Positions 12,909 through 64,000 of a stretch of DNA of 64,000 nt are shown piece by piece; position 1 is the first letter of the stretch, and each line of letters starts with the position of its first letter. Below the pieces are notes generated by a model. It saw only the letters and a program-made list of their open reading frames with translations, had not been told where the DNA came from and did no database searches. The position numbers and the translations under genes were made by a program. This DNA is from a virus: the IMG/VR virus record IMGVR_UViG_3300049571_000380, positions 32,001 to 96,000 of that record; one strand, 5' to 3'.

Positions 12909-14087
12909 TGCCGGAATCCTTCCCGAACCTCCATGCGGAGGGAAGAACAGACAGGGTTCACCCGTACTGAGTTGCCCGGTTCTAGACCGTTGCCCAATCG
13001 GACGTGAGTTGTGTTGTCTGTTCGTGCTCACCGCACGGTGAGTGTGGAACATCCCGGGGGAAACGGCGCCGCATCGGAGCGCGTCCCGTAATCCGTGGCG
13101 GATTCGGCGCGTCGCAACGTGTCGCGTCCGAATCCCCCGGGGGACGGGAGCGCTAAGCGTCTCCCGTCCGTCGCGGGCAGGGGTTCCGACACCCCTGGTA
13201 TCCCGCCGTACCGTGCAACGTCACCCGACGGTTTCCCGTCCGTCGAGAGTTGCTGATCATCCATGCCGTACCCGCATGGTGCGTTTGACTGATAGGCCGA
13301 CTCCCGCAAACCGGTCACCCGGGGAGTGTCCCGGGGCGATTCTGGCACTCCGCACGGGCATTGATCCCGCACCACACGTGCCTTACGTGATTGGGCCGGG
13401 GGTTATCGCGCTTGCGTTGTCCGGACCGGCTAACTTCCGCCTCCCGGCGGTAGTGCTTCGCTGCCTACGCTTTCCACGGTATTCCCGTTCCCCCGTGCGC
13501 TCAGGTTGCGCCTGTAAGGGGACCGACTAGGGACCGGTATTCACGTGCGGGTCCAGACAGACAACGCAAGGGTTTGGGTCGCTCGCCCCGTTGTGGCCTA
13601 TCAGGGGGCCCCTTTTCCGGCTAGGGGGCCCGTACCGTTTGCGCCGCTCCCACACTCCCGGGTGCGCCCGGGGATCGTGTGCGGGAGGGCTCCGAAAATC
13701 ACAAGGAACCGCATTCGAGTGCATCCCGCGCCATTACGGCTAGCGCGCTCCGCTCCCGTCCGCCGCATCGCGGGGAATCGTGCCTCCCGCTTTCCCGCCC
13801 GACGGCACCCGGTTGCCCGGCGCGTCAGTGCTTCGGATGCGCGCTCCCCGGTCACCCCCCGCGCTAAGCGGAGGAACACCCGGGGGCGTGTTGCCCGGGG
13901 ATGGGACCCGGGCGGTCGTGCTGTGCGCCCCGCGCCGCGTCCCGCCGGAGCGGGCGCCGCGTCGTGGCGACAGGCCAAACACCACCACACTCATGGCTGC
14001 CATTGCAGGTGTGGGGTTGCTGACGGCATGTCATGTGATCAAGAAACGTGCAGGTCAGAGCGCTACCGCACTTCAGGACCAGGAACG

Positions 14088-14103
14088 TGTGACGCAGATC
14101 ACA
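14088..14103. promoter_or_regulatory. CRP/FNR-family-type box TGTGA-CGCAGA-TCACA
   Basis: Perfect TGTGA-N6-TCACA. Confidence 0.55.
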
Positions 14104-14332
14104 ATGGGCTCTGACCTGCGGAAACGACGAGTTCAAGATTTTTCTCGAAAAAGGTTCTCGCAACTCTTGCACCTGCGGAAACGTCAGACACGAATCTGTT
14201 TGTGCAGGTCAGAGGCATGGAGATCGTACCGGACTTCACGACACGAAACGGACATGTACGACAGATGGGTCAAGAATTTGCGGTGAGCAAACGGATGAGC
14301 AAATCGGTAGGTGTAGCAAGCATCGATAAAAA

Positions 14333-14348
14333 TGTGACGCAGGTCACA
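14333..14348. promoter_or_regulatory. CRP/FNR-family-type box TGTGA-CGCAGG-TCACA
   Basis: Perfect TGTGA-N6-TCACA; 17/22 match to AAATGTGATCTAGATCACATTT. Confidence 0.6.
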
Positions 14349-14848
14349 TGTACAAACTCGGACATAGCTACGCGAGACAGGCAGGGACGGGGAGGGTTTC
14401 GGGTGCGAGGAAGGTGACCCAACCTGTGTGCATAGCTCCCACATGTCCGGTTCATACACGTACGCGCACGTCAGCGCTGCGACCTGCGATGTATATACAG
14501 AGAGTGAGAAGCAAGTGAGGGTCAACCACTCTTAGTTACTTATGTGAGCGGGATCGCTCCGCTTTCTCGCGCTCGAAACCGGTACAGCGAACTGTCGAAA
14601 CCGCAGGTCACAGCGTTGTCCCGAATGTCGGAGTTTGCAGTGATCATGCTGCTGACCTGCGGAAACTCGGAATGCTCCCGGAGTGCAGCACGTCTAGCGC
14701 GCTCCCACATTGCAGGAACATGTGTGTAGGTATGTCTGATTTGAGAGGGAAGGGAAGGGTGTGGGAAGAATGCGAAGCTGAGGGGGAGTGAGCTGCACAG
14801 ATGAGCACGTGAGTACACATGTGAGCAGTGAGCGGGAGCGCAGGGGTG

Positions 14849-14880
14849 CGAGCGCACGCGCGTGCATGCGCGTGCGCTCG
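14849..14880. repeat. 32-bp near-perfect palindrome of alternating purine-pyrimidine
   Basis: CGAGCGCACGCGC-GTGCAT-GCGCGTGCGCTCG. Confidence 0.9.
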
Positions 14881-15088
14881 GGTGCGGGTGCGCGGACGCG
14901 TCGCGCGTGGCGCGCGTGTGCCTGCCCGCCCGGGTGCCTGTGAGCGCGCATGCTGCGCCCCGGTACGGGGTGCCATGGGGGGGCGCGTGAGCGGGTGATC
15001 ACTCGGTATGCAGGGTGCGCATGATCATGCGTTTATCTGTGCGGGTGAGCGCACGTGAGCGGGAGCGGGAACGCGCGGGAATTCAGGG

Positions 15089-15480
15089 GGAATGCGGGAG
15101 CACTCGGAACGGGAATGCGCGGGTATCTCGATATCGGTATTTCGCATTCACGTCTGTACTGCTCACACCTATTACACACATACACATGAACCTATGCAGT
15201 GCAAGGAAAGCGGGAGGTGAGAGAAAAGGAAAGCGAGGGGAAACGGGAAGCGCATTCGGAATCGGTATAGCTGCTATCTCTCGCCACTCACACAGGGAAT
15301 GCGGGGAGAAATGCAACAGATGGAATGCAGGGGGAGTGCGCAGCAATGGGAGGGATGGAATGCAGGGGGATCAACAGCTAGCTAATGCAGGGATACCCAG
15401 GCTCTATCCACCAGCTCTGCATCTCACGTCAACGCACACATACATGCACAATGAATGCACATGGATATGCAAGGGAATGC
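15089..15480 (+). repeat. six same-strand GGAATGC copies (15089, 15112, 15296, 15322, 15357, 15474)
   Basis: Read directly; a further copy at 14669. Confidence 0.8.
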
Positions 15481-15635
15481 GAGCGGGAGTGCGAGCGGTG
15501 CAGGTGGGAGAAAACCTGCGGGAAATTCGCGGGAAATTCTGTCGGGATTTACTCACGTTAGAAAACCAAATGCGGAATTTAATTTGAATTTGGGTCCCAG
15601 GTTAGGACCATGCATCCATCCCCGCACTTTTCGCT

Positions 15636-31209: not shown

Positions 31210-32289
31210 ATGTCCACGGAAACCCTGCGGGAAACCGCGATCCTCTCCGAGGACGCCCAGTCGCCGGAGAAGGGCATCTGGCGTGCACTCCTCATCGCTG
31301 CCGACGTGCAGGGCTCCAGTGGGTACTACCCCGCCGAAGTGCTGAAGCGGGATGGCGCTCGCGCCTTTCCCGCCGGGACTCACATCTACTTCGACCACCC
31401 TTCCGAGTCGGAAGAGATGGACCTCCCCGAACGCAGCGTTCTGAAAATCGCCGGGTACCTTCTCGACGACGCGACCTTCGAAGAGACACCAGAAGGACGC
31501 GGGCTCTTCTCCCGAATCCAGTTCACGGAGAAGGCCAAGCCGATCGCCAAGGAGCTGCACAGCGTGATCGGTCTCTCGATCCGTGCAGCAGGCCAGATCG
31601 AGGAGACCGCTGGGCAGCGTATTGTGCGCAGCATTCAGCAAGGTCTCTCTGTTGACCTCGTCACCCGCGCTGGAGCGGGAGGAAGGCTCGTCACCATGAC
31701 CGAGTCGGCCACGCCGGAGTCCCCTCCGGCCGAGCAGACCGCGAGCACCGCCGCCCCGGCCGCGAGTGCAGCGATTCCGTCCACCATCGGAACCGGCACC
31801 CTCCTCAGCGAGGTCGCCGCCCTCAAGGACACCCTCTCCGACCGCGTCGAGCAGCTTTCGGTCGACGTCGCGCGCATGGCTTCGCAGCTCCAGGAGTCGC
31901 GCCGCGAGGCCGAGAAGCAGATGCGGGAGAGCGTCAAGCTCCAGGAGACGATCACGTACCTGCGTGACCGCGCCGAGACCGCCGACAAGGCGCTCAAGGA
32001 GAGCAAGACGACCGGTGACGTCCTCACCGAACTGCTGGAGGCGAAGCTGCCGCTTCCCTCCATGATCCGCATCGCGCAGTCCTACCGTCCGGACCAGGAC
32101 CTGCACGAGTCGATCACCCACGAGCGCGAGTACCTGAAGCAGCTCCGACGGGAGACCGAGCGCGGCGCGCTCAGCGAGGGCCGCGAGCCGTCGGGCCTCG
32201 GCCTGACCGAGTCCTCGACGTCCTTCTCCTCCACGGGCGACAGCGATCTCGCCGAGATCCGGAGCCTGCTGGGCGGAGGTGCCTACTGA
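31210..32289 (+). CDS. capsid maturation protease/scaffold fusion
   Basis: YFDHP, GLSIRA, SVDLVT.AGAGG followed by coiled coil. Confidence 0.85.
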   Translation: MSTETLRETAILSEDAQSPEKGIWRALLIAADVQGSSGYYPAEVLKRDGARAFPAGTHIYFDHPSESEEMDLPERSVLKIAGYLLDDATFEETPEGRGLFSRIQFTEKAKPIAKELHSVIGLSIRAAGQIEETAGQRIVRSIQQGLSVDLVTRAGAGGRLVTMTESATPESPPAEQTASTAAPAASAAIPSTIGTGTLLSEVAALKDTLSDRVEQLSVDVARMASQLQESRREAEKQMRESVKLQETITYLRDRAETADKALKESKTTGDVLTELLEAKLPLPSMIRIAQSYRPDQDLHESITHEREYLKQLRRETERGALSEGREPSGLGLTESSTSFSSTGDSDLAEIRSLLGGGAY

Positions 32290-60031: not shown

Positions 60032-60067
60032 CTGAACATCCCTTCTCTTTCCGATAATTGGTGCCTA

Positions 60068-60274
60068 ATGAGCGAAAAGTCCTGGCGGTACGTGCACGCG
60101 TGGCCGGTTCCCCCCACCGACACGGAAGGCAACCGGCACGAGGTGCAGTACCAGGAGAACGCCGAGACCCGGCAGGTGCGGTACGTGCACCTGCCGAGCT
60201 GCTGGTGCCGGGCTACGCCGCCTTCTCGTAGCAGCCGATCCATGCCCGCGACGACGGGCTCGCCCCGCACGTGA
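60068..60274 (+). CDS. possible small protein
   Basis: GATAAT upstream; MSEKSWRYVHAW...CWC; 3' end overlaps polA. Confidence 0.35.
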   Translation: MSEKSWRYVHAWPVPPTDTEGNRHEVQYQENAETRQVRYVHLPSCWCRATPPSRSSRSMPATTGSPRT

Positions 60275-62180
60275 TCGGGACGGTCTCGAAGAAGGTCGTC
60301 AGCGCCTTCATGGCCTTCGCCGAGATCTCCTCGACGCGCTCCTCGGGGACCTCCAGCACGATCTCGTCATGGATCACGAGAACCAGCATCTCCAGCACCT
60401 CGCGGTCCATCCGCAGCAGCCCGTCGCAGAGCAGGTCCCGAGTCGTCGACTGGCCGACCTGGGCGGGCGCCTGCGTGTACTCCTGGCCCGGGATGACCCG
60501 CAGCGGGCGCCCCCACTTGCTGGGCACGAGGCCGGTCTGCTCGGCCTTCCGACGGATCCGGTTGCGCCAGCGGCACAGGACCGGGAAGGCGCGCTTCATC
60601 CCGTTGTCGAACTTCCTGGTGGTCTCCAGCGGCAGCCCGGTGTGGGCCGAGGCGCCCTTCGGGCCCTGGCCGTAGTTCCAGGCGTGGGTGATGGCCTTCG
60701 CCTTGCCGCGCGCCTCGTCGTCTCGGCTGCCGAAGACGCGGAACGCGACCTCGCGGTGCATGTCCATGCCGGGCCGGGCGAGCTTCATGTACTCCGGGTC
60801 CTGGCACCATCCGGCCACGGCTCGGGCGTCGACCTGGTCGAGGTCGATGGCGATGAAGACGTGCCCCCGCTTCGCCTTGAACATCTTGCGCTGGAGCAGC
60901 GCCGCGCCGCGCTTACCGATGTTCGTCACCGAGGGCTTGATGTGGGCCCAGCGGCCGGACGCCTGGATGTCGCCGATCTGCGGGTGCACGCGGCCGTCGG
61001 GGCAGACGTTCTCCAGCACCTCTTCGGCCTTGGCGCTCGCTGAGCCGACCATGATGGCCGCTTCGCACAGCTCCAGCACCTCGGGGTTGTCGGCGTACTT
61101 CCGGCTCAGACCCGGGATGGACTCCTGGCCGCGCAGCCAGGCATCCTTGCCGAGGGCATCTTTCGAGAGGGCGAGCTTGCCGCCGTTCAGGGTGTACGGC
61201 ACGTCCTCGTCGCGGACTCCGGCCCGGCGCAGCGCCCGCTCGAAGGCGTCACGCCCTTCGGTCGTGGTGAGCGGCGAGGCGCCGATCGTCTTGCTGCGCC
61301 ACTTCCAGCCCATGCGCAGGTCGGGGCACGGCCGCAGGAACAGCGACTCGTACAGCGAGCGCACCCGCTTGCCGTGCTTGGTGGTGCGCGGGATCCGCAC
61401 CTCGACGCGCTCCTGCCAGCGGACCTCGGAGTGCGGCAGCGGCACTCCGGCCTTCTCGTGCAGCAGCTCGTACGCCTTGCTGCGCTGCTGCTCGGCCAGC
61501 TTGATCTGCCGGTGGACCTCGTCCATGTCGACGCCGAGACCCTTGAGGTACATGCCGTTCTGGATCGCCGAGATCAGCATCTCGCGCTTGACCACGGGAA
61601 TCAGGTTCCGGCGGTATGCCCGGCGCCCCATCTCGCGGTACACGTCACGCCCGGCAATGAGGTCGCCCCGCAGGTAGTCCCAGTACTCGGCCAGTTTCTG
61701 CGGGATCTTGTCGTAGCCGCCGTACTGCGCGGCCATGCGCGGCAGGTGGTCGGTCTTCCCCTCGAAGCCGTAGCGCTCGGCCACGTCGTTGAGCCGGTAG
61801 CTGATCCGCAGATCAGACGGGGTCAGGCCGCGCCGCGCGAGCGCCTTGAAGTTGAGCTTCACGCCGGGCCGCAGCTTCGGGTACGGCGGGTTGATGGTGC
61901 GCTCGCCCACGAGGGTGTCGACAGCCTTCTCGGCCAGCTCGTGGTAGTTCGCGCCGCAGTGCACGGCCAGGGCCACGAGGTCAAACCCCAATATATTATG
62001 CCCGAATATTATGCTCGCTTCTTTGAGTACGTTTATCAATTCCTGCGGATCCGTAGATACTTGCGGTTCACCGTCATCTACTACCCAACCCACGAGTCTG
62101 ACGAATGGACCTTCGTATCCACCACGAAACAACAATTCAGCACTTGCCGTCTCGATGTCGAATCCAACTACGCCAGCCAT
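60213..62180 (-). CDS. polA: family A DNA polymerase with 3'-5' exonuclease
   Basis: ExoI FDIET, ExoII HNILGFD, motif A DLDQVDAR, motif B KAKAITHAWNYG, motif C IHDEI. Confidence 0.95.
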   Translation of the reverse strand: MAGVVGFDIETASAELLFRGGYEGPFVRLVGWVVDDGEPQVSTDPQELINVLKEASIIFGHNILGFDLVALAVHCGANYHELAEKAVDTLVGERTINPPYPKLRPGVKLNFKALARRGLTPSDLRISYRLNDVAERYGFEGKTDHLPRMAAQYGGYDKIPQKLAEYWDYLRGDLIAGRDVYREMGRRAYRRNLIPVVKREMLISAIQNGMYLKGLGVDMDEVHRQIKLAEQQRSKAYELLHEKAGVPLPHSEVRWQERVEVRIPRTTKHGKRVRSLYESLFLRPCPDLRMGWKWRSKTIGASPLTTTEGRDAFERALRRAGVRDEDVPYTLNGGKLALSKDALGKDAWLRGQESIPGLSRKYADNPEVLELCEAAIMVGSASAKAEEVLENVCPDGRVHPQIGDIQASGRWAHIKPSVTNIGKRGAALLQRKMFKAKRGHVFIAIDLDQVDARAVAGWCQDPEYMKLARPGMDMHREVAFRVFGSRDDEARGKAKAITHAWNYGQGPKGASAHTGLPLETTRKFDNGMKRAFPVLCRWRNRIRRKAEQTGLVPSKWGRPLRVIPGQEYTQAPAQVGQSTTRDLLCDGLLRMDREVLEMLVLVIHDEIVLEVPEERVEEISAKAMKALTTFFETVPITCGASPSSRAWIGCYEKAA

Positions 62181-63125
62181 TTCTCCATCTCCTTTCCGGA
62201 TTCACTGAATCGAGATGATTAGGGTAGATGTACCCTAATGAGATTCTGGATGAATCCTTCATGCGATCCATCGAAATACTCTTTGCCTTTAACTGGGTTG
62301 ACTCCTCCGGTGCGAAGAGATTTAATTACTGCCTGCTCCGTTGCGTAAGCAACTCCAGCAGGGAGTCCCCGACGGAGCACCAGGACTTCGGTGAAGCCTG
62401 CTGCGGCGTGGACACCTAGGCGAGGTCGTGGATTCAGACTGGTGATTCCGAATTTCACCCAATTCCGCTCAGGGTTGCGCACCAAGTAGAAGATGTCTTG
62501 ATTCGTCCAGGTGCACTTTAGGCAAATACCTTGCCCGTTTCGAACATTCGCGGGCATCGGCGAACACGCGTGTCCCTCTGAGCAGGTGACCCTATGCGGC
62601 TTCTGGCTTCCCAGCCACGCTTCCTCAAGAAGGGTGGCTCCGATTGCCTTCAGATGCTCCTTGAATGACGTCTCTGCGTCTATGGATTTCTGGAAACGCT
62701 TCGTCCATATTTTATTTGTCTGGCCGCACTTCTCACACAATCCGTTACCTATGTTTACGCTCTGCGGTCTCGGATAAGTTTCATGCCCCTCTGGGCAGAG
62801 TACTCGATGAGGTTGCTTCGACCCCTTCCAGGTTTCTTCGAGGACAATTCCGCCAAGTTCGCCGACACGCTTCCTAAAAGAAGCCTCAGCGGCAAACGAC
62901 GCTTCATCGCGCGTGGATCCTTGACCGGTAACGCGGTCACCACAAAGTCTGCACATGCCATACCCTTTGAGGATATTACACGGCCTTACCTGAGTTGAAT
63001 GTCCAGCCGGGCATAGCACTTCATGGGGTTCACGAAGTCCCGCCCATTCTCCAGAAAATGTTCCGCCCAATTCCTCAATTTTGGATCTAAAGTTTCGTTC
63101 GGCTTCAATCGATTTAGCAGTCCTT
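61981..63125 (-). mobile_element. low-GC cassette: endonuclease gene plus 5' end of polA
   Basis: GC drops from 42/60 (61921-61980) to 21/60 (61981-62040) and recovers near 63125. Confidence 0.75.
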
Positions 63126-63130
63126 GCCAT
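62219..63130 (-). CDS. free-standing homing endonuclease-like protein: three Zn-finger repeats plus T5orf172/MUG113-type GIY-YIG domain
   Basis: 3x H.V.C..GH-X15-C..C; C-terminal FYLV...VKFGIT...RL...EQ...EYF. Confidence 0.75.
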   Translation of the reverse strand: MARTAKSIEAERNFRSKIEELGGTFSGEWAGLREPHEVLCPAGHSTQVRPCNILKGYGMCRLCGDRVTGQGSTRDEASFAAEASFRKRVGELGGIVLEETWKGSKQPHRVLCPEGHETYPRPQSVNIGNGLCEKCGQTNKIWTKRFQKSIDAETSFKEHLKAIGATLLEEAWLGSQKPHRVTCSEGHACSPMPANVRNGQGICLKCTWTNQDIFYLVRNPERNWVKFGITSLNPRPRLGVHAAAGFTEVLVLRRGLPAGVAYATEQAVIKSLRTGGVNPVKGKEYFDGSHEGFIQNLIRVHLP

Positions 63131-63145
63131 CTCTTCCCCTCTCCG

Positions 63146-64000
63146 TCAGGCTGTTCCCGTGGTTGCCGGGAGGAGGTACTTGTCCTCCCAGGCGTAGAGC
63201 AGGCTGTAGTACCTGCCGCCGAGGTGCCGGGCGCGATGTGGCCTAGGCAGCTCGGGGATGCACAAATGGTAGCAGTCCTCACCGTTTCTAGGGACGGGCG
63301 TCGCCGTGAAGATGTTCTCCTTCAAGAGCATTTCCGGGAACAGGTCGCGGACCCACTCCTGGCCGTAGACGTACGGCGCCAGCTCCACGTCCCGCTGACT
63401 CGCCATGCCCTGCCAGAACATCTGGTCCTCGCGCGAGCGCACCGACAGCGTGTCCAGGTCCGGGCCGACCGGCGTGAACTGCACCCCGCGCGACGGCTCC
63501 AGCAGGACCACTTTCGGGACGCCCGTGAGCCGGGACGCCATCGCCTCGGGTACGCCCTTGTCGCGGACGATGTCGGCGGCGAACAGGCGGAAAGCTGTAT
63601 CCCCGCGTGTCGCCGCCTCCAGGGCCAGGTGCACCACCCGCATGTCACAGGACCCGAGCACTCGCGTGGCCTGCATACCATCGGGCCGGACCATCCACTT
63701 CTGGCAGGTCGTCGAGGGCAGCTCGGTCATCTCCTCGAAGAAGGAGGAGCTGAAGAGCATCAGCGGGCTGAGCAGGGTCACCGCCGCCAGCCGACGCCGC
63801 CTGCTCCACCTGCGGCGGTTTACGTGGGCCCACCAGGTGAAGGAGAGGATCTGACCCCTCTCCACCGGGCTGTACACGTGGAGCAGATCGACGTCGGCCG
63901 GGTTGGTGTTGTACGGGCTGCGGAAGACGGTCCGGTTGGGGGCGTCCATGACGCGCTCCACGGCCCTCACGAGGTGCGGAAAGCGGTGCAGTGAGGGAAC
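63146..64000 (-). CDS. hypothetical protein, 3' part (frame open to window edge)
   Basis: Frame stays open 63146-64000. Confidence 0.65.
   Translation of the reverse strand, partial: VPSLHRFPHLVRAVERVMDAPNRTVFRSPYNTNPADVDLLHVYSPVERGQILSFTWWAHVNRRRWSRRRRLAAVTLLSPLMLFSSSFFEEMTELPSTTCQKWMVRPDGMQATRVLGSCDMRVVHLALEAATRGDTAFRLFAADIVRDKGVPEAMASRLTGVPKVVLLEPSRGVQFTPVGPDLDTLSVRSREDQMFWQGMASQRDVELAPYVYGQEWVRDLFPEMLLKENIFTATPVPRNGEDCYHLCIPELPRPHRARHLGGRYYSLLYAWEDKYLLPATTGTA

Follow-up and report, generated by a model that had tools for sequence, protein, structure and literature searches.

In a large Streptomyces phage, a probable homing-endonuclease gene occupies the precise position of the start codon of polA, which encodes DNA polymerase, and the evidence largely supports a selfish element that brings its own AT-rich head for the first 66 polA codons. 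The phage is represented by a 192,484-bp virus record (IMG/VR IMGVR_UViG_3300049571_000380), of which we analysed a 64-kb stretch, record positions 32,001 to 96,000. This whole stretch is termed the window, and coordinates refer to it unless another locus is named; polA, the endonuclease gene, their parts and signals, and the gene upstream of them all lie on its minus strand. The nearest phages by nucleotide identity are the Streptomyces phages JustBecause and Kela (83%) and the Satis group (80%). We consider it probable that the endonuclease gene and the polA head belong to a free-standing cassette, occupying approximately 61983–63205, that spreads among Satis/JustBecause-group Streptomyces phages by intronless homing. 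This reading is directly supported by the exact insertion point, the presence and absence of the gene among relatives, the joint inheritance of endonuclease and polA tract, purifying selection and the fold of the nuclease.

The gene order in JustBecause, Kela and the Satis group, which we call naive because these genomes are free of the endonuclease, is a 315-aa gene, 12–15 nt, and then polA. In the window a separate open reading frame (ORF) of 303 aa (62219..63130; phrog_681 ‘endonuclease’, 1.7e-24) stands between these two genes as a free-standing homing-endonuclease gene. The polA gene (60213..62180) encodes an intact family A DNA polymerase of 655 aa with a 3′–5′ exonuclease N-terminus (PF00476, DNA_pol_A, 6.6e-29; phrog_17), and has the same length as JustBecause gp62. 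The window and JustBecause agree without a single difference through the run ending in CCTGACGGAGAGGGGAAGAGATGGC, which comprises the Shine–Dalgarno (SD) sequence and ATGGC; the endonuclease ORF therefore begins at the SD and ATG that belong to polA in naive genomes. This SD, GGAGAGGGGAAGAG, directly precedes the endonuclease ATG, the two together occupying 63128..63145, and it is identical to the sequence preceding polA in JustBecause and in loci L012, L013 and L021. The original prediction, made from the window alone, had noted an SD before the endonuclease start and proposed that an element entered at the polA start and took over its ribosome-binding site (RBS); naive relatives, in which the polA ATG follows straight after the same SD, bear this out.

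Translation of polA now appears to rely on a 38-nt spacer supplied by the cassette (62181..62218), with the substitute RBS GGAAAGGAG at 62190–62198, 9 nt ahead of the ATG. Spacers of 35–39 nt with a GGAG-type RBS are also found in L004, L007, L008, L009 and L005, whereas no endonuclease-free locus has one. Between cassette alleles the sequence of the spacer is not conserved. A regulatory hairpin in the spacer was considered and dropped, since the predicted RNA fold was no better than shuffles (z −1.56) and the sequence is unconserved. A perfect 9-bp hairpin, UUAGGGUAC-AUCU-GUACCCUAA, at 62219–62245 overlaps the endonuclease stop codon; its local fold is not significant, and the stop-proximal sequence of other cassette alleles is unlike it. 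A promoter and terminator scan of 61700–63500 gave nothing better than shuffles, and bldA-type regulation was rejected because the window endonuclease gene contains no TTA codons. An intron- or intein-encoded endonuclease is ruled out, since polA reads as a single continuous ORF from a start codon of its own and an Rfam scan of 61500–63600 found no intron, ribozyme or other RNA family.

The borders of the cassette coincide with steps in G+C content (GC). Measured per 60 nt, GC runs 67, 73 and 70%, then falls to 37% at 61980–62039, stays at 42–62% through 63119 and returns to 63–67% from 63120. The break follows polA codon 66, within the ExoII motif (...HNILGF|D LVAL). The reported pattern of a GC drop inside polA at ExoII (70 to 37% at 61980), low values through the endonuclease gene and recovery at its start (63130) was thus reproduced. 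By feature, GC is 47.0% in polA codons 1–66 (61983–62180), 44.7% in the spacer and 52.3% in the endonuclease coding sequence (62219–63130), versus 69.2% in the remainder of polA and 67.0% in the upstream gene. Among 1257 sliding 1150-nt windows across the 64 kb (mean GC 66.2%, standard deviation 3.0), the minimum, 51.7%, lies at 62001.

Seven independent assemblies from different samples, the window counted among them, carry the endonuclease, and DNA is available for six. Homologues with 62–88% amino acid identity lie at exactly the same site in L004, L007, L008, L009, L005/L006 and two P0010-carrying contigs, and all six loci with DNA have the new RBS and the AT-rich polA 5′ end. The endonuclease-free set of this polA clade comprises 22 records: 6 isolates (JustBecause, Kela and the Satis group), 7 IMG/VR loci and 9 JGI metagenome loci. 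The endonuclease is absent from all 22, and in them the polA ATG comes directly after the SD. Within the 192-kb genome the endonuclease gene is single copy, and an IMG/VR search with it as query returned no relative. The family is also represented on Streptomyces and Kitasatospora chromosomes; the contexts of distant members (phiSAJS1 gp30, L027 and L028) were uninformative.

The AT-rich tract of polA codons 1–66 (61983..62180) extends from the ExoI motif DIET to the ExoII motif HNxLGF and, judged by identity and by GC at third codon positions (GC3), co-travels with the endonuclease. Compared with JustBecause, its GC3 is 0.45 versus 0.88 at 82% amino acid identity, and synonymous differences affect 0.67 of conserved codons, versus 0.20–0.28 downstream. 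GC3 of codons 1–66 is 42–61% in all six endonuclease-bearing loci with DNA and 80–91% in the endonuclease-free loci where it was computed, with 82–91% among those from IMG/VR and JGI. The ratio of nonsynonymous to synonymous divergence (dN/dS) is 0.02–0.03 in the tract and 0.11–0.15 in the endonuclease gene; both are under purifying selection, stronger on the tract, and the endonuclease gene is intact in all the assemblies that bear it. The longest run of identity between a cassette tract and any naive allele is 11–17 nt (22 nt in L005), versus 29–125 nt between naive alleles, so that for recombination the tract would in effect be non-homologous to them. The original prediction of some 67 recoded N-terminal codons holds in that excess divergence is limited to codons 1–66. 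The alignment to relatives proposed with it gave the expected result in the 22 endonuclease-free records, and an AT-rich polA 5′ end outside endonuclease-bearing genomes, which would have spoken against it, was seen only as short relic patches in the Satis group, L019 and L024.

These patches were recorded individually. Satis polA codons 43–66 (L002:5836-5910) contain the cassette-type stretch CAT AAT GTT TTG AAT TTT together with the motif STNPQDLIDVLN, and codons 47–56 of L019 (L019:2636-2668) are likewise of cassette type (INVLKEAS); both are probably gene-conversion remnants of earlier invasions. In L024 (Ga0307297_10001619; L024:770-830) polA opens with the cassette-type ATG GCT GGC GTG GTT, has R at codon 19 and is preceded by an atypical SD, GGAGCTGAC; such a sequence suggests a relic locus from which the endonuclease has been deleted.

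The extent of the mobile unit is best seen against L009, which has a nearly isogenic backbone with a diverged cassette. Nucleotide identity between the window and L009 is 94% in the upstream gene, 67% in the endonuclease gene, 73% in polA codons 1–66, 98% in codons 67–117 and 96% in codons 118–570. Mismatches per 30 nt number 5–11, falling to 0–2 exactly after codon 66–67. Synonymous divergence (dS) of the backbone is 0.14–0.18, while the proportion of synonymous differences (pS) in the cassette is 0.76–0.77, which is saturated. Across all pairs, the identity of the tract tracks that of the endonuclease and not that of the backbone or flanks. A diverged cassette on such a backbone shows that the endonuclease gene, the spacer and polA codons 1–66 move as one unit. 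The unit also includes approximately 75 nt of upstream flank, which the original prediction lacked: positions 63131..63205, made up of 15 nt of intergenic DNA and the last 60 nt of the 315-aa gene, have no mismatches to JustBecause (with which the window is identical over 63126–63216) and 11 to the otherwise 94%-identical L009 backbone, so that the block exchanged in the window is approximately 61983–63205.

A second pair, L005 with the endonuclease and Satis without it, is 99% identical on both flanks and differs only in the gene, approximately 12 nt upstream of it and polA codons 1–36. We read this as a gain or loss that happened recently and involved a tract of lesser length. Tract length thus varies, from approximately 36 codons in L005 through 66 in the window and L009 to a longer tract in L007. 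L005 and L009 (L005:5001-5708 and L009:5001-5708) both have a 235-aa form of the endonuclease with two zinc modules instead of three, the first being absent. This form occupies the common insertion site on a Satis-like backbone as well as on a window-like one, and its sequence suggests that it may be a specificity variant produced by repeat gain or loss.

The endonuclease combines an N-terminal array of zinc modules with a C-terminal nuclease domain. Three tandem modules of approximately 60 residues (residues 6–65, 77–138 and 148–209; 62504..63115), presumed to bind DNA, each have the pattern C-x3-H...C-x2-C (CPAGH/CRLC, CPEGH/CEKC and CSEGH/CLKC), with pairwise identities of 39–48%. Across 16 aligned homologues, modules 2 and 3 show little or no variation in their Cys/His columns. 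Homologues differ in the number of modules, from two to about five. The Pfam CapR model matched weakly in three homologues only (best E 0.11), alongside weak zinc-ribbon matches, and an NCBIfam search returned only a sub-threshold match to the SprT zinc ribbon.

The nuclease domain (residues 211–303; 62222..62500) was assigned from a predicted structure of the C-terminal 93 residues, with a predicted local distance difference test score (pLDDT) of 89.7. Foldseek matched it to 54 BFVD models at E ≤ 1e-3 (best 8.6e-7; query-based TM-score, TMq, 0.6–0.79), among them proteins named T5 Orf172, CapR-homology and GIY-YIG, as well as ICP1 ORF88. Its top matches in the PDB are GIY-YIG nucleases, namely HIGLE (Z 5.8) and Slx1 (Z 5.6 and 5.2). 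With the whole protein, a multi-domain model, Foldseek found nothing meaningful in the PDB, and a profile search against PDB sequences found nothing. Residues Y215 (in FYLV), K226-F-G228-I-T, R237, H241, E265 and E284 are invariant in the 16 homologues and, by analogy, may represent the catalytic positions of I-TevI and T5orf172 nucleases. Two homologues are named ‘GIY-YIG nuclease family protein’ by their sources. The gene had been described as Zn-finger GIY-YIG-like; the zinc modules and the modelled fold agree with this, with the qualification that the nuclease appears to be T5orf172-type within the GIY-YIG superfamily, a placement made by predicted fold and not by membership in a Pfam sequence model.

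In intronless homing as it is known (PMC2988022), the naive allele is cut and resected and the genome that has the endonuclease serves as the repair template, flanks being co-converted; cut sites can be distant. At the present locus, in a mixed infection, the enzyme would cut the start region of naive polA, probably between the SD and approximately codon 36; these bounds are set by the minimal converted block in L005. Repair would draw on the genome that has the cassette, in which the putative target is split by the insertion as well as recoded. No identity run between this copy and naive alleles exceeds 11–17 nt (22 nt for L005), so that repair would have to cross outside the block. The endonuclease gene, the RBS and the recoded head would accordingly be copied together, leaving polA intact. 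Sequence conservation among 12 distinct naive alleles indicates a candidate target: third-position divergence is 10% in codons 1–10 versus 21–45% elsewhere in the first 200 codons, and the sole invariant run of at least 12 nt, TTCGACATCGAGAC, lies in these ten codons and encodes ExoI FDIET. At polA nucleotides 6, 9, 15, 55, 56 and 75 every endonuclease-linked allele is distinct from every naive allele, the relic L024 excepted. Cleavage resistance of the resident allele, like the putative nuclease activity, the cut site and super-Mendelian transmission, is a prediction of this scheme.

Several points weigh against homing by such an enzyme. Homing is deduced here from sequence and fold, and cleavage, the position of the cut and the transmission bias are predictions. 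The fold matches in the PDB are weak (Z 5.2–5.8; Foldseek E 0.13–0.24). The nuclease domain falls below the Pfam thresholds (PF10544, PF13455), the window protein giving no match and MUG113 appearing in two homologues only (E 0.0016–0.0026). The invariant 14-mer TTCGACATCGAGAC is kept in the window; if it were the recognition core, recoding there would give no immunity, so that this motif alone cannot be the immunity determinant. Plain co-conversion, moreover, fails to explain why all cassette alleles remain near 50% GC3 after saturating divergence, and we found no low-GC donor lineage: no polA of the clade is low in GC throughout among INPHARED, IMG/VR and JGI metagenome sequences, and the next closest other polA is <40% identical.

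Reduced GC is common at gene starts and the window comes from a metagenome-type virus record, so we considered that the architecture might be an assembly artefact or chimera, or that the AT-rich 5′ end might be a translation-initiation adaptation unrelated to the neighbouring gene. We give this practically no credence: the same architecture in seven independent assemblies rules out an assembly chimera, and the AT-rich head is found only alongside the endonuclease, codons 1–66 of endonuclease-free records being at 80–91% GC3. It is also improbable that the gene and its AT-rich head are a passive cassette exchanged by ordinary homologous recombination at conserved flanks, with the nuclease serving a role other than homing, whether against competitor or satellite DNA, against host DNA or as a regulator. 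Sharp-boundary mosaicism is possible without a break, the patches in endonuclease-free genomes (Satis codons 43–66, L019 codons 47–56 and L024 codons 1–5) show that ordinary recombination operates here, T5orf172-type nucleases and DNA-binding domains have been co-opted for phage–satellite conflict (PMC10055350), and family members reside in Streptomyces and Kitasatospora chromosomes. Yet the gene occupies one exact site in seven assemblies, never occurs without a recoded version of the conserved sequence next to it, and is both intact and subject to purifying selection wherever it occurs. The 99% plus/minus pair and the swap on a 94–98% backbone point to frequent, local, unit-wise transfer, which is unlikely with identity runs of 11–17 nt inside the block unless the site is targeted.

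A different question is whether, given homing, the AT-rich head does anything. It could be a neutral hitchhiker, a co-conversion tract from an unsampled relative of approximately 50% GC where the cassette originated, with no role in immunity or linkage, a reading that we find possible but not likely. Free-standing endonucleases normally co-convert flanking markers (PMC2988022), the length of the tract varies between loci as described above, and GC3 is alike in tract (42–61%) and endonuclease gene (49–62%), as expected from common foreign ancestry. The search that yielded no low-GC clade polA counts against it, as do the third-position differences at nucleotides 6, 9 and 15, which are fixed between endonuclease-linked and naive alleles other than L024. 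So does the base composition itself: cassette alleles are synonymously saturated and yet all AT-rich, with GC3 of 42–62% in backbones of 81–95%. Third-position changes in the window and L004 were given a direction by reference to the outgroup L007; an all-position count was set aside because of its implausible equilibrium GC in the flanks. Changes from weak (A or T) to strong (G or C) bases and the reverse are balanced in the cassette (39 and 31, with no strong-to-strong changes), while the flanks have 3 and 25 respectively, and 42 strong-to-strong changes, of 70 (Fisher p 7.5e-15). For the cassette, drift toward a GC3 of 0.9 is rejected by the counts (binomial p 1.8e-13). An unsampled low-GC reservoir, relaxed codon selection and selection to stay unlike the target are candidate causes of the retained AT-richness. 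The last of these leads to a suggestion that we regard as rather doubtful, namely that the AT-rich head is a maintained functional part of the cassette: with no identity run above about 17 nt left in common with naive alleles, and with altered bases beside the start codon, it would be at once an uncleavable resident target and a homology barrier that forces copying of the endonuclease in every repair event. If true, this would explain GC3 near 50% within genomes of 90% despite saturating divergence, and the cassette would be a splicing-free equivalent of an intron, self-contained with endonuclease, RBS and replacement gene head.

The homing reading places the cassette among known systems. The free-standing GIY-YIG endonucleases of T-even phages (SegF at gene 56, SegG at gene 32, SegB and SegE; PMC2988022) likewise lie between conserved essential genes, occur sporadically among relatives, co-convert the flank of the neighbouring essential gene (marker exclusion), and have a resident target allele that differs from the naive one. 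Unlike them, the gene described here sits exactly on the start codon of its target, takes over the SD and ATG and supplies a substitute RBS; its linked tract is recoded at approximately two-thirds of conserved codons and is compositionally distinct (GC3 45 versus 90%); and its nuclease domain, whose activity is predicted, lies at the C-terminus, resembles T5orf172 and is accompanied by zinc-module repeats, not by Seg-type DNA-binding domains. In this light, the ‘donated exon’ of the original prediction is apt in that the head travels with the gene, but it is a co-conversion or marker-exclusion tract of the kind already known for free-standing endonucleases and not a new principle.

T5orf172 homing endonucleases are known to have the same domain plan and to be associated with replisome genes and with exchange boundaries (Barth, Dunham and Seed, PMC10055350). 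Members of this family with zinc repeats of CapR/DUF723 type, from Vibrio phage ICP1, T5-like and other phages, also combine a terminal T5orf172-type nuclease with a varying number of zinc modules at the opposite end, lie beside essential or replisome genes at allelic-exchange boundaries, and have homologues that turn over at the same site. The present proteins differ in scoring below the Pfam thresholds for T5orf172, MUG113 and CapR, so that the relationship is one of fold; in belonging to high-GC actinophages; and in having as cargo a 198-nt gene head, not a multi-kb ‘HEG island’. Intron- and intein-encoded endonucleases of DNA polymerase genes share the use of a conserved catalytic region (here ExoI–ExoII) as landing zone and an insertion that probably disrupts the recognition site; they differ in that splicing keeps the host gene functional, which in this case is achieved by duplicated, recoded coding sequence and a new RBS.

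Three other parts of the window deserve mention. The 315-aa gene, whose 3′ part lies at 63146..64000, is of unknown function and conserved as the neighbour upstream of polA in all relatives; it has no Pfam or PHROG match. Downstream, JustBecause has a 41-aa ORF (gp61) annotated between polA and a RuvC-like resolvase gene, which is not annotated in Satis; the equivalent in the window is 60032–60212 (180 nt). A further low-GC island at 14000–15600 (45–59% GC) contains no tRNA and has no PHROG match. The records of JustBecause, Kela and the Satis group end in ~1.8 kb, devoid of annotated genes, to which it aligns. It thus matches the physical ends of the isolate genomes and was rejected as a second cassette; relative to the isolates, the virus record is permuted.

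The process at work is probably the known one of intronless homing, of which this locus would be a very clean natural example; particular to it are the captured start signals with a supplied RBS and gene head, the compositionally sharp boundaries and the persistent AT-richness. The GC contrast places the borders of the unit with an accuracy of a few bases, and natural allele series exist, both as one backbone with different cassettes and as plus/minus isogenic pairs. The locus is therefore well suited to asking how a free-standing endonuclease can leave an essential gene functional while remaining linked to a target allele that is immune. That the cassette is not drifting toward the GC of its backbone raises a testable question about what maintains phage base composition. 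The findings also extend the T5orf172-type zinc-repeat endonucleases to large, high-GC Streptomyces phages.

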